Shown: piece by piece, positions 23,026 through 54,448 of the stretch | How the letters are laid out: every line of letters begins with the position of its first letter | Numbering within the stretch: position 1 is the stretch's first letter | Notes under the pieces: model-generated | The model's input: only the letters and a program-made list of their open reading frames with translations | Database searches by the model: none | What the model was told of the DNA's origin: nothing | Made by a program: the position numbers and the translations under genes | Assembly (NCBI GenBank): GCA_902826035.1 | Contig: CADEDG010000001.1 | Location: 38,305-102,304, forward strand | DNA from: an uncultured Alphaproteobacteria bacterium | Lineage (GTDB): Bacteria > Pseudomonadota > Alphaproteobacteria > Caulobacterales > Aquidulcibacteraceae | Length of the DNA stretch: 64,000 bases | Direction of reading: 5' to 3'

Positions 23026-23097
23026 CGAGCGCGCACAATCCGGAGCACGGGGCGTGCGGGAGGGGCCGGGGAAAATGATCCAAACTGGCGCGCTCAC
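23026..23097 (-). ncRNA. Candidate structured RNA, copy A (orphan, ECF promoter-driven)
   Basis: Starts 6 nt after GCGTAT; terminal stem GAGCGCGC/GCGCGCTC; internal GGATC and CCCCTCCC; homologous to 48370-48439 and 54377-54448. Confidence 0.5.
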
Positions 23098-23103
23098 TTA
23101 GAT

Positions 23104-23127
23104 ATACGCGCAGCGACCTCGAACCCC
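23104..23127 (-). promoter_or_regulatory. Putative ECF promoter with no downstream gene
   Basis: Minus strand GGGGTTCGAGGTCGCTGCGCGTAT. Confidence 0.65.
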
Positions 23128-23317
23128 GCACGCCGTGCACTGCGCGAGCTCCGACCATCGCGGCGTGTGCAAGGGTGTCAGGCGCGCTTCGTCATTCTGT
23201 GACGAATAGATTTGCCCTCGCTCGGGCGGGGTAGGCACAAATACTGCTTCAGGAAACGCACCGGACCTTACGTTCAGTTTGTGTGCCAACCATCCCGGAA
23301 ACTCGTTTAGAGGGCGT

Positions 23318-24538
23318 ATGTCGCGCGAGAATTATATCTTCACCAGCGAGAGCGTGTCAGAGGGCCACCCGGATAAGGTGGCCGACCGCATCTCCGACAC
23401 CGTCGTGGACGCGTTCATCGAGGCCGATCCCGAAGCCCGCGTCGCCTGCGAAACCATGGTCACCACTAACCGCATCATCCTCGCCGGTGAAGTGCGGGCC
23501 GGGAAGCCGGGCAATGACAAGGCCGCCAACAAGGCCTTCACTAAGGACATCATCGCGTCGCTGCAGCCGAAGGTCCGCACGGCGGTGAAGGACATCGGCT
23601 ACGAGCAAAAGGGCTTTCACTGGGAGAAGGCGCGCTTCGCCAACTATCTGCATGGCCAGTCGGCGCACATCGCCCAAGGCGTCGATGCGTCGGCGAAGAA
23701 GGATGAAGGCGCCGGCGACCAGGGCATCATGTTCGGCTACGCCTGCGAGGAAACGCCGGAGCTGATGCCGGCGACGCTGCAATACTCGCACAACATTTTG
23801 AAGCGTCTCGCCGAAGTGCGCCACAGCGGCGAACGCCCGGAACTAGAGCCGGACGCGAAAAGCCAAGTCACGCTACGTTACGAAAACGGCAAGCCCGTCG
23901 AGGTCGTCGCCATCGTCGTCAGCCACCAGCACAAGAAAAAACTGGGCGAGAAGAGCTACAGCCAGTCGCGCTTTGCCGAACTCGTAAAGCCGATCGCCGC
24001 TTCGGTTTTCCCTGAGGGGCTCATCACCAAGAAAACCAAGTGGCACATCAACCCAACCGGCAAGTTCGAGATCGGCGGCCCGGATGGCGATAGTGGTTTG
24101 ACCGGCCGCAAGATCATCGTCGACACTTACGGCGGCGCAGCCCCGCACGGCGGCGGCGCATTCTCTGGCAAAGACCCAACGAAGGTGGACCGCTCTGCCG
24201 CTTATGCCTGCCGCTATCTGGCGAAGAACGTTGTCGCCGCCGGCCTTGCACAGCGCTGCACCATTCAGATCAGCTACGCGATCGGCGTCGCTGTGCCGAC
24301 CAGCTTCTACGTCGATCTCCATGGCGCCGACACGATTGATCCCGCGATTCTCGAAGCGAAATTGCCAGAGTTGATCGGCGGCGCGACTCCACGTTCGATC
24401 CGCAACCATCTGAAGCTCAATCGCCCGATCTATGCGCGCACCGCCGCCTACGGCCATTTCGGCCGTCTGCCCGACAATGAAGGCGGCTTCACTTGGGAAA
24501 ACCTGGATCTCGCCGCTGAGTTGCGGCGCCTTCGCTAA
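23318..24538 (+). CDS. metK: S-adenosylmethionine synthetase
   Basis: [32 protein letters not shown] and GGGAFSGKD. Confidence 0.98.
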
Positions 24539-24666
24539 TCGCTTTTGCTCCTTGCTGCGGGCGTTGGCCGGGCGGAACGCTGCCGCCAACCGGTCCAGCC
24601 GCCCCGCAGCCCTTGGCTTCCGCTCGGTTAGCCGCAAAAGTGTCCTCGGAAGAGGCGATCAATCCC

Positions 24667-25245
24667 ATGGCTGCGGACCCAAGCGACTTGCCAGAAGCTG
24701 ATGTGCGGCGCGCACTTGAAGAGGGGCTCGACAAGATCCGTGCCTACCTCCGCTCCAGGCTGGGCGATCCAAATCATGCCGACGAAGTGCTGCAGGCTTT
24801 TTGCGCCCGGGCCTTGGAACGAGCCAGCGATCTGAAAGAGGGCGGCGCGGCGCGTTCCTGGTTGTCGCGCGTACTGGCGACCGCCATCGCCGATCACTAT
24901 CGCGGCCTCGCCCGGCGACGGGCGCGCGAAGCGCCAGCCGAGGAGCTGAGCTCTCTCGCAGCCGAGACAGAAGCGGACAGCGCTGCTTGCGCGTGTTTGC
25001 TGGCGCTCCTGGATGCTCTTGCCGCAAAGGATGCGGCGCTCATTAGAAACATCGATCTCGAGGGCCGAGATCGGACGAGTGTCGCCGCGAATCTGGGTTT
25101 GACCTTAAATGCGCTGACCGTCCGCTTACACCGCGCGCGGGCGCGGCTAAGAGAGCTGGTGCTGCGACTCTGCGCCGTGTGCGTCATCCACGGCTTTGGC
25201 GAGTGCGAATGTCCGCCGCCCAACCCGGCGAGTGCGGAACACTGA
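24667..25245 (+). CDS. ECF sigma factor with CxC linker and C-terminal Cys-rich domain (CorE/SigZ-like)
   Basis: Sigma2 and sigma4 (LTVRLHRARARL); linker CAC; tail CAVCVIHGFGECEC; no adjacent co-oriented anti-sigma. Confidence 0.85.
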   Translation: MAADPSDLPEADVRRALEEGLDKIRAYLRSRLGDPNHADEVLQAFCARALERASDLKEGGAARSWLSRVLATAIADHYRGLARRRAREAPAEELSSLAAETEADSAACACLLALLDALAAKDAALIRNIDLEGRDRTSVAANLGLTLNALTVRLHRARARLRELVLRLCAVCVIHGFGECECPPPNPASAEH

Positions 25246-25541
25246 TAGGCAAGCGCCAAACGACACCGTTTTTGTCTGTCCCCCTGAGGTCGGCGAAAGG
25301 CCACAAAATGGGCGAGCGGGGGCGCCCAATCGGTCGTGGAGGGGGCTGCCTGTAATAATTGCGCCGCCGCAGCGTCCTTTCCTTCAAAGGGCGCTCCAAG
25401 AATGAACCAGGCTTTCCGGTGAAGATGCAGTCTTACGAAAGCACGGGTGTGGGCCATTCTTCCGCGCCAGCTTCATCGAACCCCATGCGCGTCGATCGCC
25501 ATTCTTGGTTTCCTTCGCATCGCGAAAGCGGCGGCCTCCGC

Positions 25542-25988
25542 TCATTCTTCGTCCACGCCGCGCAACAATTCTTCACGCACGATCATGTCGAACCGCGCCT
25601 GTTGATCGGCATTGAGCACAGCACGCATTTCGAAGACGTGCGCGATAGCGTCTCTTTGGGTTTGGCCCATGGCGTTGTGAAACCGATCAATCGCTTGGCT
25701 GAGGCGCTCACTCTGGGCGTGATCCTCGACCACGGCGGCGGCGATATCCCGCGCGGCCGCGCGCAGCTCGGCGTCAAGGGCCGCTTGGCGCAATGCGTAA
25801 CCGGCTTCGATCGCTTCCAGACGCCGGTCCTGTTCGGGCGTCAGATCAAGTTCGCGATGAACCGCGGCGTCGAGCGTGTCCCGATGGGTGTCGGAACGTG
25901 TGAGAATTGTCCCGACAAACACGCCCCCCAGCCCGGAGCCGAGCCCCACGAGTGCTGCGAGCGCCAGCAGCTTCCAGGTTTTCAACAT
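25542..25988 (-). CDS. Periplasmic heavy-metal sensor, CnrX-like (module 2)
   Basis: AAVHRELDL, FHNAMGQTQ and HVFEMRAVL; paralog of 16689..17126. Confidence 0.88.
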   Translation of the reverse strand: MLKTWKLLALAALVGLGSGLGGVFVGTILTRSDTHRDTLDAAVHRELDLTPEQDRRLEAIEAGYALRQAALDAELRAAARDIAAAVVEDHAQSERLSQAIDRFHNAMGQTQRDAIAHVFEMRAVLNADQQARFDMIVREELLRGVDEE

Positions 25989-25991
25989 GAC

Positions 25992-26237
25992 TTATCGGCC
26001 GAGGGCAGTGGCGGGCGCATAGGGCTGATCGAGCGCAAACGGTCCAACATCGACCGTAGCCGACGCGGCGGCCGTCGATACGCCAACGGCGGAACTGACC
26101 ATCAGGACGAGGGCGCAGACCCCGGCGACCGCGCCGTTGGCGCCAGCGCCGGCGCGGTGTCGCGCGCGCGCGTCAATACGAGCCCAGACATCGCTTTCCA
26201 GTCCGTCCAATGCTGTGTCGATGTCCACCCGGCCCAA
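25992..26237 (-). CDS. Anti-sigma factor, CnrY-like (module 2); start may be GTG 26228
   Basis: LDGLESDVWARI, TM helix, FALDQPYAPATALG; paralog of 17123..17404. Confidence 0.78.
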   Translation of the reverse strand: MGRVDIDTALDGLESDVWARIDARARHRAGAGANGAVAGVCALVLMVSSAVGVSTAAASATVDVGPFALDQPYAPATALGR

Positions 26238-26295
26238 GGCTGCGAGTTGGCGATCAAGGTCGGTCAGGGAAGCCTCCGGGCGATCACGCTCTTCT

Positions 26296-26319
26296 ATACG
26301 CGCGCGGCGAGGCGCGCCC
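26296..26319 (-). promoter_or_regulatory. Putative ECF promoter of the module-2 Y-X operon
   Basis: Minus strand (AG)GGGCGCGCCTCGCCGCGCGCGTAT. Confidence 0.72.
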
Positions 26320-26467
26320 CTGGAACAGCTAGCCCATCGCGCTGCGGCAGATCAAGAATGAGACGCTCAAGACGCACTTGCAGGAGGTTGATCCAAAGCA
26401 AAGCACGGGTTCAGGTTAGGCGCGACCTTGTCATGGGGTCCCGGTTTTGGCGGCCTGCGAGGCGACC

Positions 26468-27103
26468 ATGAAACGCATGACGGCTCAGGCTTTGGTGCAG
26501 TCGGGGCAGGCCCGCTCGCCGCTGCGACGCGTCGCCTTCACCGGCGGGTTCGATGATCTGATTGCAGGCGCCCGGAGCGGCGATCGGGCGGCATTCAGCA
26601 CGCTGATGAGAAGCCACAAAGACGATCTGTTTCGCTTCGTGCGCCGGCGCGTCGCCAACGCCGACGCGGCAAGCGATATCGTTCAAGAAGCCTTCGTGGC
26701 AGCCTGGAGCGCGATGGCAAACTTCGATCCGGAGCGCTCGTTCAAGACCTGGCTGCACGCCATCGCGTTGAACAAGTGCCGTGACGCGGCGCGCCGCGCC
26801 GCGACCCGCCGAGCTTTCTGGGGCGACTGTCCCGACGGCGACGATTTGCGCGTCGCCGATGAGCGGCCATCGCCCGAAGCGGAGACAGTGAGCCGCGATG
26901 AGTTGCGAATGCTGCGCGGGGCGCTGGCGACCTTGCCGGAGCATCTGCGCGAGGCGCTGATGCTGACCGCCGTCGATGGTCTCTCGCAAGCAGCCGCCAG
27001 CGCGACCCTTGGATGCTCGGTCAAATCGCTTGAATATCGCGTCCACCGGGCGCGTGAATTGCTCACAGCCGAGATGGAACGCAGCGCCATGCCGCGCCGC
27101 TAG
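26468..27103 (+). CDS. ECF sigma factor, CnrH-like (module 2)
   Basis: AASDIVQEAF, TWLHAIALNKCRDA and LEYRVHRAR; divergent from its Y-X pair. Confidence 0.88.
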   Translation: MKRMTAQALVQSGQARSPLRRVAFTGGFDDLIAGARSGDRAAFSTLMRSHKDDLFRFVRRRVANADAASDIVQEAFVAAWSAMANFDPERSFKTWLHAIALNKCRDAARRAATRRAFWGDCPDGDDLRVADERPSPEAETVSRDELRMLRGALATLPEHLREALMLTAVDGLSQAAASATLGCSVKSLEYRVHRARELLTAEMERSAMPRR

Positions 27104-27147
27104 CGCCATCTCCGGAGACCTGGATCAATCGCGCGGTTGAGGCAGCC

Positions 27148-28299
27148 TTGACGACGGGTTCCATACTTACGGTCAATTGCGGCTCATCGAGCGTGCGCGT
27201 TGCGTGCTTTGCGCCTCGCTTGGCCTGGCGTGCGCATCTGAGCGGCATTGGCCGCGCCAAAGCGCAACTCACCATCGAACGCGCTGGTGAGAGCAAGACT
27301 ATTGATCAAGCGCCTGCCGGCGATCATCGCCAAGCGCTTGAGGCGCTCTTCAACGCCGCGCCGCCGGCTGCGCCGGTCGCGATTGGCCACCGCGTCGTCC
27401 ATGGCGGCATCGACTTCGTCGCGCCCACGCTGCTTCAGCCTGATGTTGAGGCGAGATTGCTGGAATTGGCCGCCATGGCGCCATTGCACCAAGCGGCCAA
27501 TCTTGCCGGCATCGCGGCGGCGCGTGCGCGCTGGCCGCGCTCTCGCCAGATCGCCTGCTTTGATACCGCCTTCCACGCAAATCTACCCACAGCGGCGGCG
27601 ATGATGGCGCTGCCGCGGGATCTGTTTGCCGCCGGTGTCCGCCGCTTCGGCTTTCATGGATTGTCCATTGCATCGATCCTTGCGGCGTTGCGGCGCGACG
27701 GCGTCGATGTCGGCCGCGAACGCTTGATTGTCGCCCATCTGGGTGCTGGCGCGTCGATCTCGGCCATTCGGAGCGGACGCAGCATTGAGACCTCGATGGG
27801 GTTTTCGACCGTGTCTGGCTTGCCGATGGCGACGCGAAGCGGCGACATCGACCCCGGCGCGGTTATGCACCTGCTGCGCGGAGGTCTGTCCGTAAACCAA
27901 GTTGAGGATTTGCTCCATCGCCGCTCTGGTCTGCTCGGCATATCGGGTGTGAGCGCGGACATGGCTGAATTGCTTGCCTCGACCGAGGCGGGTGCAAGTG
28001 AAGCGGTCGATGTGTTTTGCCAATCGGGCCGACGCTGGCTTGCGGGGCTTGCCGGCGTGCTGGGCGGCGTCGACCGGGTCGTGTTTACTGGAGGAGTTGG
28101 TGAAAATGCGCCGCGCGTACGCGCCAACATATGCGAAGGCCTCGCCTTCATGGGCCTGGCGCTCGACGCGGCGCGCAACGAATCGGGCGCATGCGTGATT
28201 TCCTCCGCTGCCGCAGCCGTGATCGTTGAAGTCCGAAAGAGCGACGAGGAAGGCGAGATCGCCCGCCAGACCCAAGCTCTCCTAACAGGACCTAGTTAG
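27148..28299 (+). CDS. ackA: Acetate/propionate kinase
   Basis: LTVNCGSSS, GHRVVHGG, CFDTAFH, FGFHGLS, HLGAGAS, TRSGDIDP and FTGGVGEN. Confidence 0.93.
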   Translation: MTTGSILTVNCGSSSVRVACFAPRLAWRAHLSGIGRAKAQLTIERAGESKTIDQAPAGDHRQALEALFNAAPPAAPVAIGHRVVHGGIDFVAPTLLQPDVEARLLELAAMAPLHQAANLAGIAAARARWPRSRQIACFDTAFHANLPTAAAMMALPRDLFAAGVRRFGFHGLSIASILAALRRDGVDVGRERLIVAHLGAGASISAIRSGRSIETSMGFSTVSGLPMATRSGDIDPGAVMHLLRGGLSVNQVEDLLHRRSGLLGISGVSADMAELLASTEAGASEAVDVFCQSGRRWLAGLAGVLGGVDRVVFTGGVGENAPRVRANICEGLAFMGLALDAARNESGACVISSAAAAVIVEVRKSDEEGEIARQTQALLTGPS

Positions 28300-28315
28300 G
28301 CTGAGGCCTCTGTCA

Positions 28316-28339
28316 GGGCGTGGACCCTGGCGTGCGTAT
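28316..28339 (+). promoter_or_regulatory. Putative ECF promoter of the phosphoketolase operon
   Basis: (A)GGGCGTGGACCCTGGCGTGCGTAT. Confidence 0.75.
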
Positions 28340-28392
28340 AGATTGAAGGCGGAACTGAAGGGCGTGCGCCGGCCCCAATCCGGATTATTGTC

Positions 28393-43607: not shown

Positions 43608-46298
43608 TCAGCGCTCCTGTTTGCGCAGGAGGGCGATGGCGATGGCCAATAGTCCGGCCCAGAACAGCGCCAAAATGCCAAGTTCGCCGGCCAAATCGAA
43701 GAGACTGCGACCTTTAGCGAAGACGCCGGTGCTGACCTGATTGAAGTGCGACGTGGGAAAGAGCGCGCCGATGGCGCGATCGACCGGCTCCAGACTGGCG
43801 AGCGGCTGCATGAGCCCAGAGAACTCTACCGCTGGCACCATGATGACGATGGCGGTGCCGAATACAGCCGCGGTCTGGGAGCGCGTCAGCGCCGAGGACA
43901 CAAAACCGACGGCGCTGGTGGCGGCGACGTAGAGAAAACCCGCGGCCAACAAGGCGATGAAGCTGCCCTTGATGCTCAAGCCAAACAGCAAGAGCGCCAA
44001 GAGCACGAGCAGCAAGAAGTTCACGAAGCCAAGCGCGATATAGGGCAATTGCTTGCCGAGCAGGAATTCGGTGCGCGAGATCGGCGTTACATAGAAGTTG
44101 GTGATCGATCCGAGTTCCTTTTCGCGCACCACCGCGAGTGAGGTTAGGATGGACGGAATCATCGCCAGCAGAATCCCGATCATGATCGGCACGACAGCGT
44201 TGAAGCTGCGGAAGGCTTGGTTGTAGAGGAAGCGCGGTTCGAGCGCATAAGCGGCGCGCACGGGCGCGCCGGGCCCAGCTGCGGCGGCGATCGCTCGCCG
44301 ATGTAAGGCCTCAGCGTATCCTGAAACGGTTTCGGCCCGGAACGGCATGGCGCCATCGACCCAGGCGCCGATTGGGGGCGCCCCTCCTGAAGCAAGCGTA
44401 CGCCCAAATCCCGGCGGGATATCGAGCACGAGCGTCGCCCGGTTGCTGCGCAGCGCCTGCTCGATGGCGCGGTCGTCGTTGAGCGCCGCTCTCAGTTCAA
44501 AATAAGGGGAGGAGGCGAATTCTTCGACGTAAGCGCGGCTCGCCGGGGTGCGGTCGCGGTCGATGACGGCAAGCGAAACATCCTCGACGTTGAAGGAAAT
44601 GCCGTAACCAAAGGCCAAAGCCAGAACGAGCGTGCCGGCAAGCGCCATCGCAAAGCGCACCGGCTCGCGCAGCATTTCCAGAATTTCGCGCCGCGCCACG
44701 GCGAGCAATCGCGCCGCTCGTTTCGGCCTCTTCGTGCTCGCGCTGGTGATGAGCGCCGAGAGCGTATCGGTCGGCGGGTCGCCGGCGCCGCCGATCTGCA
44801 TGAAGCGCACGAAAGCGTCTTCGAGGGTTGCAGCGCTTTGGCTCTGTCGGAGTTCGTCTGGCGCGCCCTCGGCGATGACGCGGCCCGCATGCATGAAGGC
44901 GATCCGATCGCAACGTTCCGCCTCAGTCATGAAATGGGTGGAGATAAAGATCGTTACCTGCTGATCACGGGCCAATCTCTCGATCTCTTGCCAGAACGTC
45001 TCGCGCGCTGCCGGGTCGACGCCCGAAGTTGGCTCGTCGAGGATAAGCACTTCTGGTTCGTGCAGGACCGCGATCGCCAGCGACAGGCGCTGGCGGACGC
45101 CAAGCGGCAAGCCTCCCGCGACGGCGCCGGTGTGTTCGATGAGGCCGAATTGGTGCGTAAGCGCGGTGATCCGCGCCGCGCCGCTATCGCGACCAAGGCC
45201 AAACAGTTCTGCGTGCAGATTGAGATTCTGCTGCACGGTCAGTTCGCCATAAAGCGAAAAGCCCTGAGACATGTAGCCAACGCGTCTGCGCGTGGCGAGA
45301 TCGCGCGCATCGACGAGGCGGCCCAACATACGGGCCTCGCCCGCGCTCGCGGGCAAGAGCCCAGTGAGCATTTTCATCGTCGTCGTCTTGCCGCACCCGT
45401 TTGAGCCTAAGAAGCCGTAGATCTCACCCCGGCGGACGCTGAATTCCACCCGATCGACCGCCACGAACGCGCCGAAACGGCGGGTCAATCCATGCGCCTC
45501 GACAGAAATTGGCGCGTCAGGCGCTGGCGGGCGCCGCATAATTCGGTCTGGAACTTGAGCGCCCGTCAAGGTCATGAACAGCGCCTCCATCGAGGCCGCG
45601 CCGTGTTCAGATTTCAAATGCGCCGGCGCGCCATCGGCGATGATGCGGCCGGCTTGCATCAAGACGACGCGCCCGAAGCGCTCTGCTTCATCGAGATACG
45701 AGGTCGCGACGATGAGCGCCATGGCCGGGCGGGCGCCGCGAATGGCGGATACCAGATCCCAGAACTGGCGGCGCGACAGCGGATCGACGCCGGTCGTTGG
45801 TTCATCCAAGATCAGAATGTCAGGGTCGTGCACCAACGCGCAGCACAGGCCGAGCTTCTGCTTCATGCCGCCGGAGAGTTTTCCGGCCGCGCGAGCGGCG
45901 AATGGCGCAAGCCCTAGAGCCTGCATCAGCGCGTCTACACGCTTGGACGGCGCGCCGCCGAACAGGGCGGCGAAATAATCTATGTTTTCACGGACACTGA
46001 GCGTTGGATAGAGATTGCGGCCAAGCCCTTGGGGCATAAATGCGATGCGAGGCTGGACAGAAGTGCGCGCGCGTTCCTTGGTGATGTCGTGGCCAAGCGT
46101 TTCCACCCCACCTTGCTGAACCCGCGTGGCGCCGGCGATCAGCGCGAGCAGCGTCGATTTGCCCACGCCATCGGGCCCGATGACAACCACTGCTTCGCCG
46201 GCGGCGACCGCGAGGCTCACATCGTCAAGAGCAACCGATTTTGCGTAGACGTGACGCACGCCCGTGAGCCGCGCGGCCCATGGCGGCGGCTCGGTCAT
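43608..46298 (-). CDS. rbbA: RbbA-like dual-ATPase/ABC-2 permease fusion
   Basis: Two Walker A motifs (GPDGVGKS, GSNGCGKT), LSGGMKQK, and a C-terminal permease with REKELGSITNFY. Confidence 0.92.
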   Translation of the reverse strand: MTEPPPWAARLTGVRHVYAKSVALDDVSLAVAAGEAVVVIGPDGVGKSTLLALIAGATRVQQGGVETLGHDITKERARTSVQPRIAFMPQGLGRNLYPTLSVRENIDYFAALFGGAPSKRVDALMQALGLAPFAARAAGKLSGGMKQKLGLCCALVHDPDILILDEPTTGVDPLSRRQFWDLVSAIRGARPAMALIVATSYLDEAERFGRVVLMQAGRIIADGAPAHLKSEHGAASMEALFMTLTGAQVPDRIMRRPPAPDAPISVEAHGLTRRFGAFVAVDRVEFSVRRGEIYGFLGSNGCGKTTTMKMLTGLLPASAGEARMLGRLVDARDLATRRRVGYMSQGFSLYGELTVQQNLNLHAELFGLGRDSGAARITALTHQFGLIEHTGAVAGGLPLGVRQRLSLAIAVLHEPEVLILDEPTSGVDPAARETFWQEIERLARDQQVTIFISTHFMTEAERCDRIAFMHAGRVIAEGAPDELRQSQSAATLEDAFVRFMQIGGAGDPPTDTLSALITSASTKRPKRAARLLAVARREILEMLREPVRFAMALAGTLVLALAFGYGISFNVEDVSLAVIDRDRTPASRAYVEEFASSPYFELRAALNDDRAIEQALRSNRATLVLDIPPGFGRTLASGGAPPIGAWVDGAMPFRAETVSGYAEALHRRAIAAAAGPGAPVRAAYALEPRFLYNQAFRSFNAVVPIMIGILLAMIPSILTSLAVVREKELGSITNFYVTPISRTEFLLGKQLPYIALGFVNFLLLVLLALLLFGLSIKGSFIALLAAGFLYVAATSAVGFVSSALTRSQTAAVFGTAIVIMVPAVEFSGLMQPLASLEPVDRAIGALFPTSHFNQVSTGVFAKGRSLFDLAGELGILALFWAGLLAIAIALLRKQER

Positions 46299-47326
46299 GA
46301 GCGCGGCGTGTCGGGGAAGCGGCGCGTCCATTCTGACTGCAGCCGCGCAGGCCAGCGCGCATCCGGTCTCAATTGAATATAGGCCACGCCGGTCACGCCG
46401 ACATTGAGCCGATCGGGCCGCGATTGCGTCAGCTCATCGGGAATACGCACGCGCACGCGATACATGAGATTATCGCGCTCGCCGCGCGTCTCCACCTGCC
46501 GCGGCGTGAATTGCGCTTCAGGCGAAATGAACGAGACCCGCGCCGGCAGGGGAGCGTCTGCTTGGGCGTCGAGCACAATCCGCGCCGGCGCGCCCATTGC
46601 CAGCGCCCCTGCCTCCCGTGTGGGCAAGAATACGGTCATGTAAATGTCGGAGGTGTCGAGCAAAGTGGCGATCGGTCCCCCGGCGTTGATGAGTTCGCCG
46701 GACTCAGCCAGCCGATAGAGCACGCGCCCTGGACGCGGGGCGAGCAAGGTGGCTTCGCGGATCTGCTCCCTGATGCGGTCAGCCTCGGCTTGCGCAGCCG
46801 CAGTGTCGGCGTCGGCGGCCGAGCGTGCGCTCTGGGCCGCGCGCAGTCCAGCGGCGGCGGTTTGTTGTGACGCGCGCCTTTGATCTAAGAATTGCTCGGG
46901 CGCGAAGCCGCGATGGTGCAGTGTCTCGGCGCGGCCATATTCGAGCGTCGCGAGCCTGAGTGCGCTGTTCTGCTGGGCGATTGTGGCGTCACTGACAGCG
47001 CGCTGTTGGCGCGCGCGCTGGATGCGAGCCTCCGCCGCGCGCAGCGCCGCTTCGAGTTCTCGGGTGTCGAGGCGGGCTATCACATCGCCTGCGGCGACGG
47101 CGTCGCCTTCCTGTACTTGGATCTCGATCAAGCGGCCCGGATAACGCGCTATGATGTCGATCTGCCGCGCTTCGAGGCGGCCATTGGCCTTGGCAAAGCC
47201 GGCTGGCGGATCTGGCGGCGAGCCCAACAGCACGCAAGAACCGAGCCCTGCGCCGATGACGACAATAAAGGCCCCGATCGCCGCCGGCAGCCGCTGAGCC
47301 GGGCGCAAGGGCGTTCGCGCAAGCAA
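46295..47326 (-). CDS. HlyD/YhiI-family periplasmic adaptor
   Basis: NGRLEARQIDI and SPEAQFTPRQVET. Confidence 0.9.
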   Translation of the reverse strand: MLARTPLRPAQRLPAAIGAFIVVIGAGLGSCVLLGSPPDPPAGFAKANGRLEARQIDIIARYPGRLIEIQVQEGDAVAAGDVIARLDTRELEAALRAAEARIQRARQQRAVSDATIAQQNSALRLATLEYGRAETLHHRGFAPEQFLDQRRASQQTAAAGLRAAQSARSAADADTAAAQAEADRIREQIREATLLAPRPGRVLYRLAESGELINAGGPIATLLDTSDIYMTVFLPTREAGALAMGAPARIVLDAQADAPLPARVSFISPEAQFTPRQVETRGERDNLMYRVRVRIPDELTQSRPDRLNVGVTGVAYIQLRPDARWPARLQSEWTRRFPDTPRS

Positions 47327-47390: not shown

Positions 47391-48071
47391 TTAGGACGTC
47401 GAGGCGAGGTTGCGCGGCGCCCTCGCGCGCCCGCCCAGGAAGCGGGGGAGGAAAGCCGGCGTGCGCGCCGCATAGGCCCGCCATTGCTCGCCGAATTGCG
47501 CTTCGGCGTCGCGCTCCTCGCTCCTGGCGAGGCGCAAATACATAAACACCAACACCGGAAACATAAGCGCCGTCAGTATCGTCGGCCATTGCACGAGAAA
47601 GCCAACCATCACCAGGATGAAAGCGAGATACTGGGGATGGCGGATCGACTTATAGGGTCCCTCGACCGCAAGCGCGCCAGCCGCCTGGGCGCGATGCAGC
47701 ACCGTCCAGGATTCCACCAGCAGCCACAGACCGCCGACAATGAGTGCATCGCTCAGCCAGTGAATTGGCGTGAAATGCGGATCGCCGCGCCAGCCCAACA
47801 ATGTAGGCCAGAAATGGCCCCCATTGTGCGTAAGGATGTCGGCGCCCGGCGCAAAGCTCTGGAGCCAGGGGGCGAGCAAGTAAAGGGTGAGCGGGAAGCC
47901 GTACATTTCAGTGAAAAGCGCGATGATGAAGGCCGAAAAAGCGCCGAAGCTGCGCCAATCGCGCGATGATCGCGGCTTTGCAAAACTCAGCGCGAACACG
48001 ATGAAGAATACGGAATTGACGAAGGCGAGCAGCCAGAGGCCGTAGCCCGAGAAGGCGCCATGGTCAGTCAT
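47391..48071 (-). CDS. Isoprenylcysteine carboxylmethyltransferase (ICMT/PEMT)-family membrane protein
   Basis: FTEMYGFPLT, GPYKSIRHPQY and EERDAEAQFG. Confidence 0.88.
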   Translation of the reverse strand: MTDHGAFSGYGLWLLAFVNSVFFIVFALSFAKPRSSRDWRSFGAFSAFIIALFTEMYGFPLTLYLLAPWLQSFAPGADILTHNGGHFWPTLLGWRGDPHFTPIHWLSDALIVGGLWLLVESWTVLHRAQAAGALAVEGPYKSIRHPQYLAFILVMVGFLVQWPTILTALMFPVLVFMYLRLARSEERDAEAQFGEQWRAYAARTPAFLPRFLGGRARAPRNLASTS

Positions 48072-48339
48072 TGGCCGCTCCATTGTCACGCTGTTGCGCT
48101 TGACCATGGCTGCCATGTCCGCCGTGACCGCCATGCATGAAGATGTGCATCAGCGGGCAGGCGAGCAGGATGAGAAGCGGCCAAGCCGCCAGCAGATGCG
48201 CGCCGTGTTCGGCGATGACATAATAAGCGCCTACGCCGAGCAAGGCGAACATAAGCACGCGGACCAGCCAAGACGCGCGGGGACGCGGACTCGCGGGGGG
48301 CGCGGGTGAGGTGGGTTCGTGATGGGCGTGCATGCTCAT
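48064..48339 (-). CDS. DUF2933 His-rich membrane protein
   Basis: EHGAHLL..LLACPLMHIFMHGGHGGHG. Confidence 0.9.
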   Translation of the reverse strand: MSMHAHHEPTSPAPPASPRPRASWLVRVLMFALLGVGAYYVIAEHGAHLLAAWPLLILLACPLMHIFMHGGHGGHGSHGQAQQRDNGAAND

Positions 48340-48369
48340 GCGCGGGCGTCCTTCAGGCGGCAGCTTGGT

Positions 48370-48439
48370 CGAGCGCGCCGCGCCGGGGATGACAGGGCGG
48401 GGAAGCGGCAGGTCGATCGCCCGGTTTAGGCGCGCTCGC
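48370..48439 (-). ncRNA. Candidate structured RNA, copy B (5' leader of the DUF2933 operon)
   Basis: Starts 6 nt after GCGTAT; stem CGAGCGCGCC/GGCGCGCTCG; internal GATC and CCCCGCCC; ends 30 nt before ATG 48339. Confidence 0.5.
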
Positions 48440-48445
48440 ATTGCT

Positions 48446-48469
48446 ATACGCGGCCCGAGGCGGGTTCCC
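48446..48469 (-). promoter_or_regulatory. Putative ECF promoter of the DUF2933-ICMT-HlyD-rbbA-yhhJ operon
   Basis: Minus strand (A)GGGAACCCGCCTCGGGCCGCGTAT. Confidence 0.78.
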
Positions 48470-48508
48470 TGAAGCTGATCGCAACGGCGCCTTTGGCAAA
48501 GCCGTCCA

Positions 48509-48532
48509 GGGCGAGCGCCGTCAGGCGCGTAT
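48509..48532 (+). promoter_or_regulatory. Putative ECF promoter of the DUF5676-GAPDH-ATPase operon
   Basis: (A)GGGCGAGCGCCGTCAGGCGCGTAT. Confidence 0.78.
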
Positions 48533-48590
48533 TAGAATGGAGCGCGCCCGACCGGGGCTTTTGTGTTCGCTTGGCAGAAGGAAGAGAAAC

Positions 48591-48881
48591 ATGGCTCAGC
48601 AACCAAGCGCTGAACGAAGCGCAGGGATCGGCGTTCTACCGTTGGGCATTGCGTTGGCGGTGACGCTGCTCGCAGCCTACGGGGCATGCTGGCTGGTTGC
48701 GGCCTCGCCCTATGCTGCGCCGTTCGCGCACGCTTGGCTGCAATTGTTCTCGGCCGAGCCCGAAGGCTCAATCGCGCAACTGATTGAGGGCGCGATCTTC
48801 AGCGCCGTCGCCGCCTGGTTCGCCGCCCTCATCTTCGCGCCTGTCTATAACTTGGTCGCCCGCGCCGATCGCATTATTTGA
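48591..48881 (+). CDS. DUF5676-like membrane protein (second paralog)
   Basis: HAWLQLFS..AWFAALIFAPVYN, similar to 38713..39030. Confidence 0.7.
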   Translation: MAQQPSAERSAGIGVLPLGIALAVTLLAAYGACWLVAASPYAAPFAHAWLQLFSAEPEGSIAQLIEGAIFSAVAAWFAALIFAPVYNLVARADRII

Positions 48882-48909
48882 CGCGCTCGTTTCGCGAAGT
48901 GAGGAAGTC

Positions 48910-49902
48910 ATGACGATACGGGTAGGCGTCAACGGCTATGGCGTCATCGGCAAGCGCGTCGCCGACGCGGTCAGGCTGCAAACCGACATGGAGCTTGTCG
49001 GCGTCTGCGACATCGCCGACGATTGGCGCATTGGCGTCGTACGCGATCAGGGCGTCCCGATCTATTCTCCCTCCGGCGCAGCAAGAGCAGGATCGCTTGA
49101 GGATATGGCGGCCGGCGCCGATCTGGTGGTCGACTGCACCCCCAAGGGCGTCGCCGCCAAGAACGCCGTGCTCTATCGCAAGCTGGGCGTCAAATTCATC
49201 GTCCAGGGCGGTGAAAAGCATGAAGTCACAGGCCATTCCTTTGTCGCCGATGCGACCTATGCGAGCGCTCTCAACCGGCCCTCGACGCGTGTTGTGTCGT
49301 GCAACACGACTTCGATTGTGCGCGTCTTCGGCGCGCTGCGGCGCGCTGGTTTGCTGCGGCGCGCACGCGGGACTTTGCTCCGCCGTGCGCTCGATCCATG
49401 GGAGAGCCATCTTGGCGGGATCATGAACACGCTTGTCCCGGAGGCGCACGTTCCAAGCCATCAAGGTCCGGACGCCCAAACCGTCGACCCCGCGCTCGAT
49501 CTCGTCACCATGGCGGTCAAGGTGCCTGAAACGCTTGGACACATGCATTTCTGGTCCGCCGATCTTACCGGCGATCCCACGCGCGACGAGGTGCGCGCCG
49601 TGCTCTCCGCCTCGCCGCGCATCGCCTTCGTGCGCGAGAGCGAGGGCCTTGGCGCGCTTAACGCGGTCAAGGAGCGCATGCTCGATCTTGGCCGGCCCCG
49701 TGGCGACCTTTATGAAGTCGCGATCCTGGAGGAGACGCTGACGGTGGCGAATGGCGAACTCTTCTGCGCCTATATGGTCGACAATCAGGCGATTGTAATT
49801 CCAGAAACCATCGACGCTGTTCGCGCTCTTATGGGCAGGGAGCAGGAGGCGGCGGTCTCAATGCGCATGACCAATCAGGCGCTCGCCATCGCCGCCCGAT
49901 GA
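48910..49902 (+). CDS. Type II (archaeal-type) phosphorylating GAPDH
   Basis: NGYGVIGKRVADAV, FIVQGGEK, VVSCNTT, SHQGPDA and VDNQAIVIPETIDA. Confidence 0.9.
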   Translation: MTIRVGVNGYGVIGKRVADAVRLQTDMELVGVCDIADDWRIGVVRDQGVPIYSPSGAARAGSLEDMAAGADLVVDCTPKGVAAKNAVLYRKLGVKFIVQGGEKHEVTGHSFVADATYASALNRPSTRVVSCNTTSIVRVFGALRRAGLLRRARGTLLRRALDPWESHLGGIMNTLVPEAHVPSHQGPDAQTVDPALDLVTMAVKVPETLGHMHFWSADLTGDPTRDEVRAVLSASPRIAFVRESEGLGALNAVKERMLDLGRPRGDLYEVAILEETLTVANGELFCAYMVDNQAIVIPETIDAVRALMGREQEAAVSMRMTNQALAIAAR

Positions 49903-49927
49903 ACCGCCGCGGCGGGGAAGAAGAACT

Positions 49928-52210
49928 ATGCAGACCGAAACACTGACCTTCGACGATCTCGTCACGCCGCTCGATCCGCTCGTGCTGGAGCGCCATCTAA
50001 AGCACACCCCCGGCGTCGCCGACGCAACGGCTAATTTTGCATCGGGATCCGTTACGGTCACGTTCGATCCGGCCGAAACTGATGTAGACCGGGTGCGTGC
50101 GGCTGTGAGCGCTTGCGGGTTTCACTGCCGCGGCGTGTCGGCTCCCCAGCATGTGGGTTCGCGTGAGCACGAGGCTCACACGCACAAGACCGCACCGGCG
50201 CCCTCCGAGCGCGGTCATCAGGGCGCGAGCGATGTCGGACACGAGATGGGTCATGGCGGGGGCATGGGCATGGCCGCCATGGCGAAGGATATGCGCAATC
50301 GCTTTCTGGTCGCGCTCGGCTTTTCCATTCCGATCTTCCTGTTGGCGCCGATGGGCATGGAAGCCATGCGCATCGATCCGCCATTCGGGTGGGATCTTGA
50401 AGTTACGCTTTTCTTTCTGGCGAGCGGGGCGATCCTCTATCCAGGTTGGCCGTTCTTTGTCGCCGCCGTGCGCGCGCTGCGTCGCGGCGTCTTCAACATG
50501 GCCGTGCTGGTGCTGTTAAGCGTTGGCGCCGGCTATTTCTTCTCAATTGGCGCCACTTTTGTCTGGGGCGGCGCGCAATTCTACGAAGCATCTTCGGTGC
50601 TCTTGGTGTTCATCCTGCTGGGGCACTGGCTGGAGATGCGCGCCAGAGCCGGCGCGTCAGAAGCCATACGGCGGCTCATGGATCTGGCGCCGCCGATGGC
50701 TATCGTCGTGCGCGACGGCCAGGAGGTCTTGGTCTCAACGGCCGAGGTGAAGATCGAGGATATCGTCGTGGTGAAACCGGGCGGCAAAGCCCCAGTCGAT
50801 GGCGTCATCATCGAAGGGCGCTCCGACATCGATGAATCCATGCTCACCGGCGAATCGTTGCCAGTGAGCAAGACAATTGGGGACGCCGTCATTGGCGGCA
50901 CCATCAACAAAAGCGGCATGATCCGTTATCGCGCCACCAAAATCGGCGCCGACACAGCTTTGGCGCAGATCGTCAAGCTGGTGCAGGAAGCACAGAACTC
51001 CAAGGCGCCAGCCCAATTGCTCGCCGATCGCGCCTCGCAGTGGCTGGTGATCGCCGCCATCGTCATAGCCGTCGCCACTTTCGTCGCCTGGCTGGCGCTT
51101 GGTCAGCCGCTCCTTTTCGCGCTTACGTTGGCGATCACAGTCTTGGTCATCGCCTGTCCGGACGCGCTTGGCCTTGCGACGCCGATGGCGATCATGGTCG
51201 GCACCGGCATTGGCGCGCGCCATGGCATCCTTATCAAAGACGCGGTTGCATTGGAGGATTCCGCCAAGCTCGACGTGGTTGTGTTTGACAAAACCGGCAC
51301 GCTGACCCTGGGCGCTCCGAAAGTGGTTGAGGTCGTTGCAAGCGAAGGGCTGAGCGAAAACGACCTTGTCGCACTGGCGGCCGCAGTCGAGAGCGGTTCC
51401 GAGCACCATATCGCCGTCGCCCTCAAGGAACGCGCCAAGGGTCTGACGTTGCCAGAAGTCTCTGACTTCGCCTCGTTCGAAGGCAAAGGCGTCAGCGGCG
51501 GTATCGGCGGCGCCAAAATTCTTTCAGGCAACCGCATGCTCATGGCCGACAACCAGGTGGCGTTCGGCGCGCTCGCCGACGAGGCCGATCGTCTCTTGGG
51601 ATCCGGCCGCACCGTTGCGCACATAGCTCGCGATGGCCAATTGATCGGCCTCATCGCGATCGCTGACGCCGCGCGCCCGACGGCGGCCGCGACTGTCGAG
51701 CGCCTCAAGCGCCAAGGCGTCGAGGTCGCGATGATGACCGGCGACAATCTCGCCACGGCGCGGCGCATCGCGGGCGAACTCGGCGTCGATATCGTGCTTG
51801 CGGAAGTCCTGCCGGGGCAGAAGGCGGACAAGATCAAAGAGCTGCAGGCGCAGGGCAAGAAGGTTGGCATGGTTGGCGATGGCGTCAATGATGCGCCGGC
51901 GCTGACCCAGGCCGATGTGGGGTTCGCCATTGGCGCAGGCACAGACGTCGCCATGGAGAGCGCCGACGTCGTGCTCATGCGCAGCGATCCTTACGATGTC
52001 GTGCGCGCGATCGATCTGTCGCGCGCCACGTTGCGCAAGATGCATCAAAATCTTTGGTGGGCGGCGGGCTACAATGTGCTCGCGTTCCCGTTGGCGGCGG
52101 GCGTGCTCTACCCGCTGCTGCTCAGCCCCGAGATCGCGGCGCTGTCGATGTCGGGCAGCTCAGTGATCGTGGCGGCCAACGCGCTCTTGCTGCGCTGGGA
52201 GAAGCTCTGA
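49928..52210 (+). CDS. Copper-type P1B ATPase with CPD motif (P1B-3-like)
   Basis: HMA-like N-terminus and His/Met linker; LLGHWLEM, ACPDALGLATP, DKTGTLT, YN and MSGSS. Confidence 0.93.
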   Translation: MQTETLTFDDLVTPLDPLVLERHLKHTPGVADATANFASGSVTVTFDPAETDVDRVRAAVSACGFHCRGVSAPQHVGSREHEAHTHKTAPAPSERGHQGASDVGHEMGHGGGMGMAAMAKDMRNRFLVALGFSIPIFLLAPMGMEAMRIDPPFGWDLEVTLFFLASGAILYPGWPFFVAAVRALRRGVFNMAVLVLLSVGAGYFFSIGATFVWGGAQFYEASSVLLVFILLGHWLEMRARAGASEAIRRLMDLAPPMAIVVRDGQEVLVSTAEVKIEDIVVVKPGGKAPVDGVIIEGRSDIDESMLTGESLPVSKTIGDAVIGGTINKSGMIRYRATKIGADTALAQIVKLVQEAQNSKAPAQLLADRASQWLVIAAIVIAVATFVAWLALGQPLLFALTLAITVLVIACPDALGLATPMAIMVGTGIGARHGILIKDAVALEDSAKLDVVVFDKTGTLTLGAPKVVEVVASEGLSENDLVALAAAVESGSEHHIAVALKERAKGLTLPEVSDFASFEGKGVSGGIGGAKILSGNRMLMADNQVAFGALADEADRLLGSGRTVAHIARDGQLIGLIAIADAARPTAAATVERLKRQGVEVAMMTGDNLATARRIAGELGVDIVLAEVLPGQKADKIKELQAQGKKVGMVGDGVNDAPALTQADVGFAIGAGTDVAMESADVVLMRSDPYDVVRAIDLSRATLRKMHQNLWWAAGYNVLAFPLAAGVLYPLLLSPEIAALSMSGSSVIVAANALLLRWEKL

Positions 52211-52286
52211 AAAAGGTCAGATCGATCGAACGCAAAGCTGGTCCGATGCTGAGGCCGCAGAGGCTGAGAGTTCGGGAGGCGAAGTC

Positions 52287-52511
52287 ATGAAACTCCTGGC
52301 AATCGCGGCGGTCGGCGTTCTCGCTCTAGCGCTCGGCGCCTGCTCGCATATGGGCCAAGGCATGCATCCGATGCACGAAGGCGGAAGGATGGACGGCCAT
52401 CGGACGCAGGAGCGCGCCTGTCCCGCGGACCACGCTGGCGATCCGGCCAGCGCGCACGAGCACGCCGAGGGTGCGGAAAATGAGCGTCCAGCTCCAGCGC
52501 AACCGCAATAG
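52287..52511 (+). CDS. Small His/Met-rich lipoprotein
   Basis: GGAGG RBS; lipobox LGAC; SHMGQGMHPMHEGGRMDGH; ends PAQPQ. Confidence 0.75.
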   Translation: MKLLAIAAVGVLALALGACSHMGQGMHPMHEGGRMDGHRTQERACPADHAGDPASAHEHAEGAENERPAPAQPQ

Positions 52512-52591
52512 CGCCCACTTGCGCAGCGCGCGCTGAACTGCGCCGCTCGCAAGGCATGAGCCTCGAGAGCGGCGCGGGGACGCAAATTAGG

Positions 52592-52876
52592 TTATTGCGG
52601 TTGCGCGGGGGCCTCGGTTGGCGCGGCCTGCGTATCCGTTTGCTGTTCACGGCAACCCGGATGGGCCGCGGTCGGCATACGACTGTTGTCATGTGGCCGA
52701 TTCATATCGTGGCTTGCCGTATCATAGGGGCAGTCCGTCGGTTCGGCAGGCATGGCGGAGTCGCGCATCGTCTCGCGCGGCCCATGATGATGCCTATCCG
52801 CTGGCGCCGTGCATGCGCCAAGCGCCAACAGCCCGCCAGCGGACGCGGCGCAAACAATGCCCTTCAACACGTTCAT
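52592..52876 (-). CDS. Small His/Met/Cys lipoprotein
   Basis: GAGGAG RBS; lipobox LGAC; HHH, CPYD and HPGC; ends PAQPQ. Confidence 0.72.
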   Translation of the reverse strand: MNVLKGIVCAASAGGLLALGACTAPADRHHHGPRETMRDSAMPAEPTDCPYDTASHDMNRPHDNSRMPTAAHPGCREQQTDTQAAPTEAPAQPQ

Positions 52877-52922
52877 ATCAATGATCTCCTCGCAAAGGGG
52901 CGCTCCACGCCTCTGCTAGAGA

Positions 52923-52946
52923 ATACGCACCGGCGCGCTCTTGCCC
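52923..52946 (-). promoter_or_regulatory. Putative ECF promoter of the 52876 lipoprotein
   Basis: Minus strand (A)GGGCAAGAGCGCGCCGGTGCGTAT. Confidence 0.75.
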
Positions 52947-52977
52947 TGAACCCGCACTTTCGCCCGGCGCTCATCCA

Positions 52978-53001
52978 GGGCGAATGCCGCGTGGCGCGTA
53001 A
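52978..53001 (+). promoter_or_regulatory. Putative ECF promoter of cfa
   Basis: (A)GGGCGAATGCCGCGTGGCGCGTAA. Confidence 0.72.
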
Positions 53002-53064
53002 TCAATGTGAGGACGCACCTGAGAGCGCGCCCGGGAGCGCAAGTGATGGGAGAGAGCGATCAAT

Positions 53065-54330
53065 ATGCTTGAGAGTTCCACCGATAAGGCACGCAAGGGC
53101 GTGGTGCTGGGCCAAAAGCGTCACTTTCTCTCGTCGGAAGCTCTGCTCTGTGCAGCGCTCGATCAGCTCATTGCGCGCGGCAATCTGGTCGTCACCTTTC
53201 CCAGCGGCGAGCAGCGCCACTTCGGCGAGCGAGCTGGCGCCCCTGTCGTTGTCGCAATCGAAGAGGCAAACGCTCTAGGCCGGCTGCTGACCAATGGCGA
53301 ATTGGCGTTGGGCGAACTTTACACCGATGGCCTCATCACAATCGCCCGCGACGATATCGATGGCCTGCTGGCGCTCATCCTGCAAAACCTTCGAAGCCAT
53401 GGCTTCAAAGCGAGAGCCGCGCCCGCGGGCATGCGCCTCTTTGAGGCGCCGCGCCGCGAACTCAACGACAGAAAACGCGCCGAACGCAACGTAGCGCACC
53501 ACTACGACATCTCCAATGAGCTTTACCGGCTCTTTCTCGATGAAGACCTGCAATATTCGTGCGCCTATTTCGAAACGGGCGGTGAGACCCTCGAACAGGC
53601 ACAAGAAGCCAAGAAGGAGCTCATCGCAGCAAAGCTCTGCCTGCGCCCAGGCCTTTCGGTCTTGGACATTGGCTGCGGCTGGGGCGGGCTTGCGCTCCAC
53701 TTGGCGCGCACGCGCGGCGTTCATGTCCGCGGCATCACACTCTCGCAAGCCCAGTTGCCAGTTGCGCGCGTGCGCGCCGAGGCGCAAGGCCTCGCGCCGC
53801 AAACAAGTTTCGCGCTCGAAGATTATCGCGAAACGAACGGCGCGTTTGACCGGATCGTCTCGGTTGGCATGTTCGAACATGTCGGACGTGGCCACTATGA
53901 TGAGTTTTTTCAAAAGCTCGCTTCGCTGCTTGTTGAGGATGGCGTGGCGCTATTGCACACGATCGGCCGCGCGGATGGACCAGGCGCCACTAGTCCATGG
54001 ATCGACCGCTACATCTTCCCGGGCGGCTACATTCCCGCGCTTTCAGAGATCATGCCGGCGGTTGAGCGCGCGGGATTATATGTGACCGACATTGACGTGT
54101 GGCGTCTTCACTACGCCTTCACGTTGCGTGCATGGCGAGAACGCTTCGAAGCGCGGCTGGACGACGTGCGCGCCATGTTCGATGAGCGCTTCTGCCGCCT
54201 GTGGCGCTTCTACCTGGCCGCAAGCGAAGCGGCGTTTCGGTACGGCGGCCATGAAGTGTTTCAGATTCAGCTCGCGCGCCGTCAGGACGCTGTTCCGCGG
54301 ACACGGCGCTATCTGGAACGCCCCGCTTAA
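53065..54330 (+). CDS. cfa: Cyclopropane-fatty-acyl-phospholipid synthase family methyltransferase
   Basis: HHYDISNELY, QYSCAYF, LDIGCGWGG, VSVGMFEHVG and YIFPGG. Confidence 0.93.
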   Translation: MLESSTDKARKGVVLGQKRHFLSSEALLCAALDQLIARGNLVVTFPSGEQRHFGERAGAPVVVAIEEANALGRLLTNGELALGELYTDGLITIARDDIDGLLALILQNLRSHGFKARAAPAGMRLFEAPRRELNDRKRAERNVAHHYDISNELYRLFLDEDLQYSCAYFETGGETLEQAQEAKKELIAAKLCLRPGLSVLDIGCGWGGLALHLARTRGVHVRGITLSQAQLPVARVRAEAQGLAPQTSFALEDYRETNGAFDRIVSVGMFEHVGRGHYDEFFQKLASLLVEDGVALLHTIGRADGPGATSPWIDRYIFPGGYIPALSEIMPAVERAGLYVTDIDVWRLHYAFTLRAWRERFEARLDDVRAMFDERFCRLWRFYLAASEAAFRYGGHEVFQIQLARRQDAVPRTRRYLERPA

Positions 54331-54376
54331 GCAGGTTTGAAGAGCCTCCGTCGCCCGATCGAGGATCAGGAATGAG

Positions 54377-54448
54377 TGAGCGCGCACGGCCCAGGTGCGC
54401 CGTACGGGGGGAGGGGCGCGAGGGTTGATCCCAGGCTGGCGCGCTCAT
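54377..54448 (-). ncRNA. Candidate structured RNA, copy C (orphan, convergent on cfa)
   Basis: Starts 6 nt after GCGTAT; stem TGAGCGCGC/GCGCGCTCA; GGGATC; CCCCTCCC; 72 nt like copy A. Confidence 0.5.

Follow-up and report, generated by a model that had tools for sequence, protein, structure and literature searches.

A promoter-fused hairpin in the metal-resistance island of a Terricaulis-like alphaproteobacterium: a candidate clade-specific regulatory RNA module

Three hairpins behind ECF-type promoters

The 64,000-nt window considered here (the whole stretch of DNA analyzed, C1:38305-102304, to whose numbering all positions refer) belongs to a 3.14-Mb assembly of 208 contigs from an uncultured alphaproteobacterium, and it carries a metal-resistance island that holds, among other genes, copA, metK, cfa, an efflux operon headed by a DUF2933 gene and three genes for extracytoplasmic function (ECF) sigma factors. 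On the minus strand of this island lie three hairpin elements, A, B and C, each joined to a promoter box of ECF type, and these are the sole three copies of the promoter-fused hairpin in the assembly. To judge from its covariation and conservation among related genomes, the element is very probably a functional structured RNA made from a promoter of this type.

23027-23095, minus strand: hairpin A, 69 nt; minimum free energy (MFE) -37.3, z -4.3; covariance-model score 57-67 bits
48371-48437, minus strand: hairpin B, 67 nt; z -3.5; predicted 5' leader of the DUF2933 operon
54378-54446, minus strand: hairpin C, 69 nt; MFE -37.9, z -3.9; in the cfa-EamA spacer
23104-23127, minus strand: predicted promoter box of A, GGGGTTC-N11-GCGTAT, CnrH-like ECF type
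48446-48469, minus strand: predicted promoter box of B, GGGAACC-N11-GCGTAT
54455-54478, minus strand: predicted promoter box of C, GGGGACC-N11-GCGTAT

Direct reading of the minus strand gives the same layout at all three loci, GGGnnnn-N11-GCGTAT-N8-GAGCGCGCC...(G)GCGCGCTC, with each element spanning GAGCGCGC...GCGCGCTC; A reads GCGTAT-ATCTAAGT-GAGCGCGCC...GCGCGCTC, B reads GCGTAT-AGCAATGC-GAGCGCGCC...GCGCGCTC and C reads GCGTAT-TATAGAAT-GAGCGCGCC...GCGCGCTC. A regular-expression search of the whole 3.14 Mb found GAGCGCGC-N40-70-GCGCGCTC at 11 loci, and the three at a fixed distance behind GCGTAT are A, B and C alone. An earlier note on this DNA had described three homologous minus-strand elements behind ECF-type promoters, and both the direct reading and the genome search confirm this. 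The MFE values of the three are -37 to -38 kcal/mol, with z-scores of -3.5 to -4.3 against dinucleotide shuffles. The lengths of 72, 70 and 72 nt given in that note take in one or two flanking bases, the hairpins themselves being 69, 67 and 69 nt long; the base just outside both ends also pairs (U-G in A, C-G in B and U-A in C). The stem, of about 17-19 bp, occupies the extreme 5' end of the predicted transcript, and in all of the roughly 25 copies known across genomes the hairpin starts 7-8 nt past GCGTAT.

The promoter box GGG-N15-GCGTAT is present in 36 genomic copies, 15 in the 64-kb window and 21 in the other 3.07 Mb, which amounts to a 34-fold enrichment. The 15 window sites span 3368-54478 and each points into a downstream gene; copies of the box precede the phosphoketolase cassette (28316), Bax1-I (37557), ExoD (35619) and others, and the promoter box of cfa itself is of the same type, as a GCGTAA variant (52978-53000). 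Only 3 of the 15 window promoters are followed by the hairpin. The -10 element of the CnrH-dependent promoter cnrYp is CCGTATA, as established by primer extension and run-off transcription (PMC13492112). A GCGTAT(A) box with GGG 15 nt upstream and ECF sigma genes nearby fits a promoter of the CnrH type, and the reading of these boxes as ECF promoters is well founded as a prediction, the three ECF sigma factors of the window being candidates for the cognate one. The proposed attachment of the elements to such promoters is thus upheld by the enrichment of the box in the island and by the likeness of its -10 to that of CnrH. On the strength of these sequence features, the metal island, in which three genes for ECF sigma factors lie, appears to form a single large ECF regulon.

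Covariation, conservation and distribution

Covariation was assessed in 21 distinct sequences (alignment A9). In this set, whose members are related and whose alignment was fitted to a model and thereby favors structure, 88% of cells form standard pairs, changes on both sides are seen in 10 of the 22 pairs, and compensatory cells number 33. The observed covariation was matched in none of 500 column shuffles; slid controls gave 17-54% paired cells, with 21-54% when the 3' partner was shifted by 1-3 columns. The most divergent copies (L114, L181 and L182) adopt the same architecture in independent MFE folds, with entirely different middle stems. Homologs in related genomes thus keep both the stem and its covariation.

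The outer clamp, GAG(C/U)GCG(C)/(G)CGCGCUC, is nearly invariant over 8-9 bp (GAGCGCGC/GCGCGCUC), and the only changes in it are from C to U, giving U.G pairs. The middle stem covaries freely and the internal loops are variable. In each of the 21 sequences the apical loop carries the C-rich motif CYUCCCC(C)GC, as CCCCUCCCC in A and C, CUUCCCC(C)GCC in B and CCUCCCCCGCC in L114. GATC and a C-rich tract, both pointed out previously, are present in A, B and C, but the GATC inside the hairpin is absent from orthologs, and the same is true of GATCGGG(C/G)GAC, which is indeed seen downstream of A and C in this genome. On the plus strand opposite hairpin A, positions 23049-23071 form a canonical G-quadruplex motif (GGGGCGTGCGGGAGGGGCCGGGG), and the opposite strands of B and C each contain three runs of three or more G plus a GG; these runs may only mirror the C-rich loop.

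Between species the C hairpin is 87-90% identical, compared with 86-88% for the last 300 nt of cfa. Its surroundings are less alike, with 50-65% identity in the spacer towards cfa and 54-61% in the upstream 100 nt. Because the hairpin is as conserved as cfa coding DNA while its flanks have diverged, it is under purifying selection. On the sequence evidence the element is best regarded as a real clade-specific regulatory RNA module, whose function we infer.

Homologs were sought with the exact pattern and then with covariance models R1-R3, home-made models whose E-values are rough, and all genomes compared were metagenome-assembled genomes (MAGs) without 16S. By pattern and covariance models, the element is present in 13 of 80 same-genus genomes; with filters off, divergent B-type leaders were found in two more, which brings the figure to about 15 of 80. 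One sister-genus genome (G355) has a copy, the sole one outside the genus when 301 genomes of the order were searched with covariance models. At the level of the class, 401 genomes searched with such models returned only L184 and L185, which look false and have no promoter. A pattern scan of contigs yielded raw matches that were mostly due to chance before the model filter; among the matches listed, L114 is in ULC027bin2, a MAG labelled as another alphaproteobacterium, L063 is in a MAG labelled Bacteroidetes (label unchecked), and the rest are in Terricaulis/Hyphomonadaceae MAGs. A metagenome scan gave near-identical copies only and nothing new, and a plasmid collection gave no match. The carriers form a clade of Terricaulis/'Hyphomonadaceae' MAGs in Caulobacterales. 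Of the 80 same-genus genomes, 13 have the ICMT-like gene that belongs to the B operon, and 12 of these 13 have the hairpins; since gene and hairpins occur in essentially the same genomes, the hairpins travel with the metal-resistance island.

Several known identities were considered and rejected. At the gathering threshold, the only Rfam match in the whole window is a tRNA (6172-6243), and at E <=5 the three hairpin loci match no family, including the classes for S-adenosylmethionine (SAM) and S-adenosylhomocysteine (SAH), which places the elements outside known Rfam families as the earlier note had suggested. A riboswitch of known SAM, SAH or metal class is further disfavored by the unconserved internal loops and the lack of a terminator. 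Neither many dispersed copies, as expected of a repetitive extragenic palindrome (REP) or miniature inverted-repeat transposable element (MITE), nor target-site duplications were seen; there are 1-3 copies per genome, always promoter-fused and without a plasmid match, so the view that these are not known REP/MITE repeats also holds. Mimicry of the 16S 3' end (GGAUCA..CCUCC) was dismissed, as the resemblance is not conserved and the assembly lacks a 16S gene.

The idea of leaderless micro-ORFs (open reading frames) in A and C did not survive comparison of orthologs. From +1, C in this genome reads ATG AGC GCG CCA GCC TGG GAT CAA CCC, MSAPAWDQPSRPS..., and stays open for 109 codons, whereas in most C orthologs (G019-type), owing to a 1-nt indel, it reads ...TGG GAT CCA ACC CTC GCG CCC CTC CCC CCG TAA, that is, MSAPAWDPTLAPLPP-stop. 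The indel shifts both frame and length, and B-type copies begin with GCG or GAG at +1 and have no start codon. The element is accordingly taken to be non-coding, as judged from these sequences.

Gene context of the copies

The genes and the additional promoter around the three hairpins are as follows.

20392-22866, plus strand: copA
53065-54330, plus strand: cfa
48064-48339, minus strand: DUF2933 gene (Pfam), 91 aa, MSMHAHHEP..., first gene of its operon; ATG at 48339 read directly
47391-48134, minus strand: ICMT-like methyltransferase gene of the DUF2933 operon (Pfam)
46295-47326, minus strand: HlyD gene of the same operon (Pfam)
43608-46331, minus strand: ABC gene of the same operon (Pfam)
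16132-16692: ECF sigma gene
24613-25245: ECF sigma gene
26447-27103: ECF sigma gene
48509-48532 (region 48509-48548), plus strand: predicted promoter D, divergent, of the oxidoreductase/P-type ATPase operon; given as context, not a hairpin copy

Hairpin A lies between copA and metK, both on the plus strand, and is convergent with copA, 160 nt from the copA stop, and hairpin C is convergent with cfa, 47 nt from the stop at 54330. No ORF was found downstream of A or C in this genome. The end of B is 31 nt from the DUF2933 ATG, and B is predicted to be the 5' leader of the transcript of the DUF2933 operon. The context is therefore as originally described, with A and C gene-less downstream and convergent with copA and cfa, and B leading into DUF2933.

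Across genomes the copies fall into the same three types. B-type copies are always DUF2933 leaders, 28-59 nt before the ATG. The converse, a universal DUF2933 leader, was rejected, because DUF2933 genes occur in 16 other Caulobacterales genomes without the hairpin. Three of these other-genus genes (L196, L200 and L204) have a similar box, GGG-N15/16-GCGTA, directly before the ribosome-binding site and are hairpin-less; DUF2933 may thus belong to such an ECF regulon outside this genus as well. A general metal-responsive leader motif, which the earlier note had offered as one interpretation, finds no support in these genes, which have the box without the hairpin.

In at least 10 genomes the C-type copy lies between cfa and EamA and is convergent with cfa; wherever copy and cfa adjoin, 38-56 nt separate the copy from the cfa stop. 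The C-type copy of G025 instead stands ahead of another promoter of this kind, behind which come small genes, Bax1-I and a SAM synthetase of archaeal type. This last gene (PF01941, L096 4154-5374) stands where the present genome and G070 have the bacterial MetK, and the island seems to have retained a means of SAM supply. The A type is known only here and in G070 (L040 5527-5593), and there a terminator-like hairpin and its U run come next, then another promoter box, the gene for a class I methyltransferase and metK; here A is inverted relative to metK and faces copA, unlike in G070. A tandem order of promoter, hairpin, second promoter and gene, with the second same-orientation box within about 50-130 nt, is therefore seen at L040 5424-5447 (G070) and at L096 ~1400-1425 (G025). 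The GATCGGG(G/C)GAC downstream of A and C might be the decayed -35 of such a second promoter.

Two further features of the B neighborhood were noted. About 70 nt of the long ICMT-like ORF lie within the DUF2933 gene; in 7 related genomes the ICMT-like orthologs have one in-frame TAG in the matched stretch, and 3 of these match only from residue 20. The true ICMT-like start probably lies about 20 codons downstream of the listed one. At promoter D, GAGCGCGCC, the 5' arm of the clamp, occurs at +2 and the closing arm is absent, followed by a small GCCC...GGGC hairpin and UUUUGUGUU; the GAGCGCGCC behind this promoter is not kept in G017 or G355. A role of GAGCGCGCC as an operator common to the leaders of the regulon was rejected: in this genome the sequence is present behind promoter D and in the 5' untranslated region of cfa, but orthologs do not conserve it, and the 9-mer is common, with 21 occurrences in the window.

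Outside the window, the same genome contains another two-copy hairpin of about 80 nt, at C32:6513-6590 (L186) and C120:4211-4294 (L187), with the clamp GGAGCGCGC.../...GCGCGCTCC and arms ACCUCC(U/C)GGUGCG. No ECF promoter box was found in the 45 nt upstream of its copies, and it has no Rfam match at E <=0.1.

Possible function and comparison with known RNAs

The explanation that we consider best, and in which our confidence is evenly balanced, is a clade-specific RNA module in which a GsrN-like, ECF-induced hairpin pairs with targets via its C-rich loop. On release of an ECF sigma factor of the island, the module would be transcribed, with the hairpin as the first ~68 nt of the RNA. B would act as the 5' leader of the DUF2933/methyltransferase/efflux operon, C would be a non-coding transcript running antisense into the 3' end of cfa, and A would be an independent unit adjoining metK. 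C-rich loops act as seeds for G-rich or Shine-Dalgarno-like sequences in several small RNAs (sRNAs), and the loop is a candidate seed because it is both single-stranded and conserved; A and C might pair through it in trans, and B in cis, in trans or both ways, while the 5'-terminal GC clamp would protect the RNA from 5'-end-dependent decay. Loop base-pairing is the leading candidate for the mechanism but a tentative proposal by analogy, and we think it somewhat more likely to fail than to hold. The terminator-like hairpin and U run in G070, together with the second promoter behind the hairpin in G070 and G025, are a sign of an independent unit. Transcription, 3' ends, loop pairing and targets are all matters that we infer.

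Several results weigh against this explanation. No intrinsic terminator was found in a search downstream of A and C in this genome, so that the two are no more than candidate discrete sRNAs. Exact complements of the loop (GGGGAGGGGC) are few, none of them in the island, and no convincing target was found. When the orthologs were compared by eye, the B loop could form only 4-5 bp with its own Shine-Dalgarno sequence, without covariation. The near-invariant sequence of the stem is unexplained by a seed model and hints at recognition of the duplex by a protein or RNase. There are also 22 G.U cells against 14 A.C cells, a slight strand signal, and for 18 of the 21 sequences the more stable fold is that of the opposite strand, which is rich in G. 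As the G.U counts and folding energies are indecisive, the strand assignment rests on the fusion of promoter and hairpin and on the context of B, which lies between divergent promoters, so that no separate promoter is evident for its opposite strand; one-sided C-to-U changes in the clamp (L182 and L183) agree with the promoter strand.

The invariance of the stem would fit a 5'-terminal stability or processing hairpin, in which the duplex would be read by RNase III or a double-stranded RNA-binding protein and would set the half-life of ECF-induced transcripts, with the loop secondary or a protein contact. The outer stem is almost invariant in the 21 sequences while inner parts vary, and the position at the extreme 5' end and the length of ~17-19 bp are suitable. 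The leaders of ompA, rnc and pnp are known 5' hairpin stabilizers, and in E. coli they likewise have stable stem-loops at the extreme 5' end; these are gene-specific, have no conserved loop seed and do not form a portable promoter-hairpin module at several loci. Such a hairpin would leave unexplained its restriction to 3 of 15 promoters, the conserved loop motif and the selection on gene-less copies, and we consider it unlikely, though it is the strongest of the rivals.

Nearly as strong, and likewise unlikely, is the possibility that the main role of C, and of A in the present genome, is to drive cis-antisense transcription into cfa-EamA and copA-metK, at their 3' ends or between the cistrons, giving ECF-dependent damping or uncoupling, with the hairpin only stabilizing the RNA. 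The convergence of C with cfa at a short distance from its stop, in every genome with this adjacency, would be accounted for, as would the absence of a terminator between the hairpin and cfa (C) or copA (A), and the same-type box of cfa itself would complete an incoherent loop. B, the G070 A-type copy and the G025 C-type copy, however, are co-directional with downstream genes, which argues that antisense transcription is not the shared function, and the spacer towards cfa is poorly conserved.

SAM enzymes adjoin every setting of the element, namely the ICMT-like methyltransferase (B), Cfa (C), a methyltransferase and MetK (G070), MetK (A) and the archaeal-type SAM synthetase (G025). It is conceivable, at a low probability, that the hairpin cassette links the metal-stress ECF response to SAM-dependent chemistry and acts in cis by sensing a ligand or ion or by binding RNA polymerase or a dedicated protein. 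The targets of such a cassette would be the DUF2933/methyltransferase efflux operon, the methyltransferase-metK unit and, through an antisense RNA, cfa, and if this were true, the SAM-linked cassette would represent a novel class of RNA element that acts in cis, as opposed to the usual sRNA that pairs through a seed. The narrower proposal of a ligand- or ion-responsive cis-regulatory RNA (riboswitch-like, or an antiterminator like put or EAR) tied to SAM use or metals is marginally less probable still. A riboswitch-controlled antisense RNA has reportedly been found at the ubiG operon of Clostridium acetobutylicum, but here only the single-stranded C-tract and the clamp are conserved and the internal loops are free, which is not what a ligand pocket would show; neither an expression platform nor a terminator was seen, no SAM/SAH class matches, and the SAM association is post hoc in an island rich in such genes.

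Equally improbable is that A, and possibly C, are functionless promoter-leader copies orphaned by rearrangement, with only B functional. The restriction of the A type to two genomes, its inversion here relative to metK and the possible decayed -35 behind A and C, as compared with the second promoters of G070 and G025, all suit this idea, but C occupies the same place in at least 10 species with 87-90% identity and compensatory changes between flanks of 50-65%, unlike a remnant in decay. A DNA-level or coding element (operator pair, cruciform, opposite-strand G-quadruplex, mobile repeat or leaderless micro-ORFs) is very improbable: the invariant inverted repeat of 8-mers, the G-quadruplex motif at 23049-23071 and the NTG at the predicted +1 of A and C types fit it, but an operator pair does not explain the covariation of the middle stem, the 1-3 promoter-fused copies lack target-site duplications and plasmid matches, and the frame is broken and B start-less.

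Among known RNAs, the pairing hairpin that we favor most resembles GsrN of Caulobacter crescentus, a sigmaT/EcfG-dependent sRNA in which the C-rich loop of the 5' hairpin pairs with G-tracts of mRNA leaders, that of katG among them (PMC5869019). Both occur in Caulobacterales behind an ECF sigma promoter (predicted in our case), and in both the C-rich 5' loop is the most conserved single-stranded feature. The promoters differ, GGG-N15-GCGTAT (a gap of 13 nt from the GGAAC-like element to CGT) as against GGAAC-N16/17-CGTT for GsrN, so that the present boxes do not have the form of sigmaT promoters. In addition, no ecfG, nepR or phyR lies beside the hairpins, whose neighbors are copA/metK, DUF2933 and cfa/EamA, and the hairpins have no Rfam match, GsrN itself not having been directly aligned. 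A single hairpin that serves both as an mRNA leader and as a stand-alone unit, with an invariant 5' GC clamp and confinement to a metal-resistance island, is a further difference.

The cuckoo RNAs (CcsR1-4) consist of tandem short hairpins, each with a CCUCCUCCC loop, are co-transcribed with DUF1127 and have RpoHI/HII promoters. They share with the present element an alphaproteobacterial origin, induction by a stress sigma factor (predicted here) and pyrimidine-rich loops resembling an anti-Shine-Dalgarno sequence. Membership in this family was rejected, as the present element is one long hairpin, its loop is CYUCCCCCGC and not CCUCCUCCC, it has no Rfam match at E <=5, and no DUF1127 was found among the neighboring genes scanned around the hairpins. 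The promoter half of the module is closest to cnrYp/cnrCp of Cupriavidus metallidurans (PMC13492112), with a -10 core (G/C)CGTAT(A), a G-rich -35, a metal cluster and nearby ECF sigma genes; the likeness ends there, since the available part of that source describes no comparable 5' hairpin for cnr transcripts.

We assign the element, from its sequence and setting, to the putative ECF-dependent riboregulators, as an uncatalogued member that is unusual in being a portable promoter-hairpin cassette and in its invariant 5' clamp. The practical value is modest, as the family is limited to a few uncultured Terricaulis-like lineages. Few ECF-sigma-dependent riboregulators are known in Alphaproteobacteria, and the finding would join to them an uncatalogued RNA backed by covariation. 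It would also give an RNA component to a metal-resistance regulon of CnrH-like type, so far described only in terms of sigma and anti-sigma proteins and efflux pumps. With one module in three apparent roles, as an mRNA leader, a convergent antisense unit and a stand-alone gene, the family may offer a natural experiment on how such cassettes become sRNA genes.

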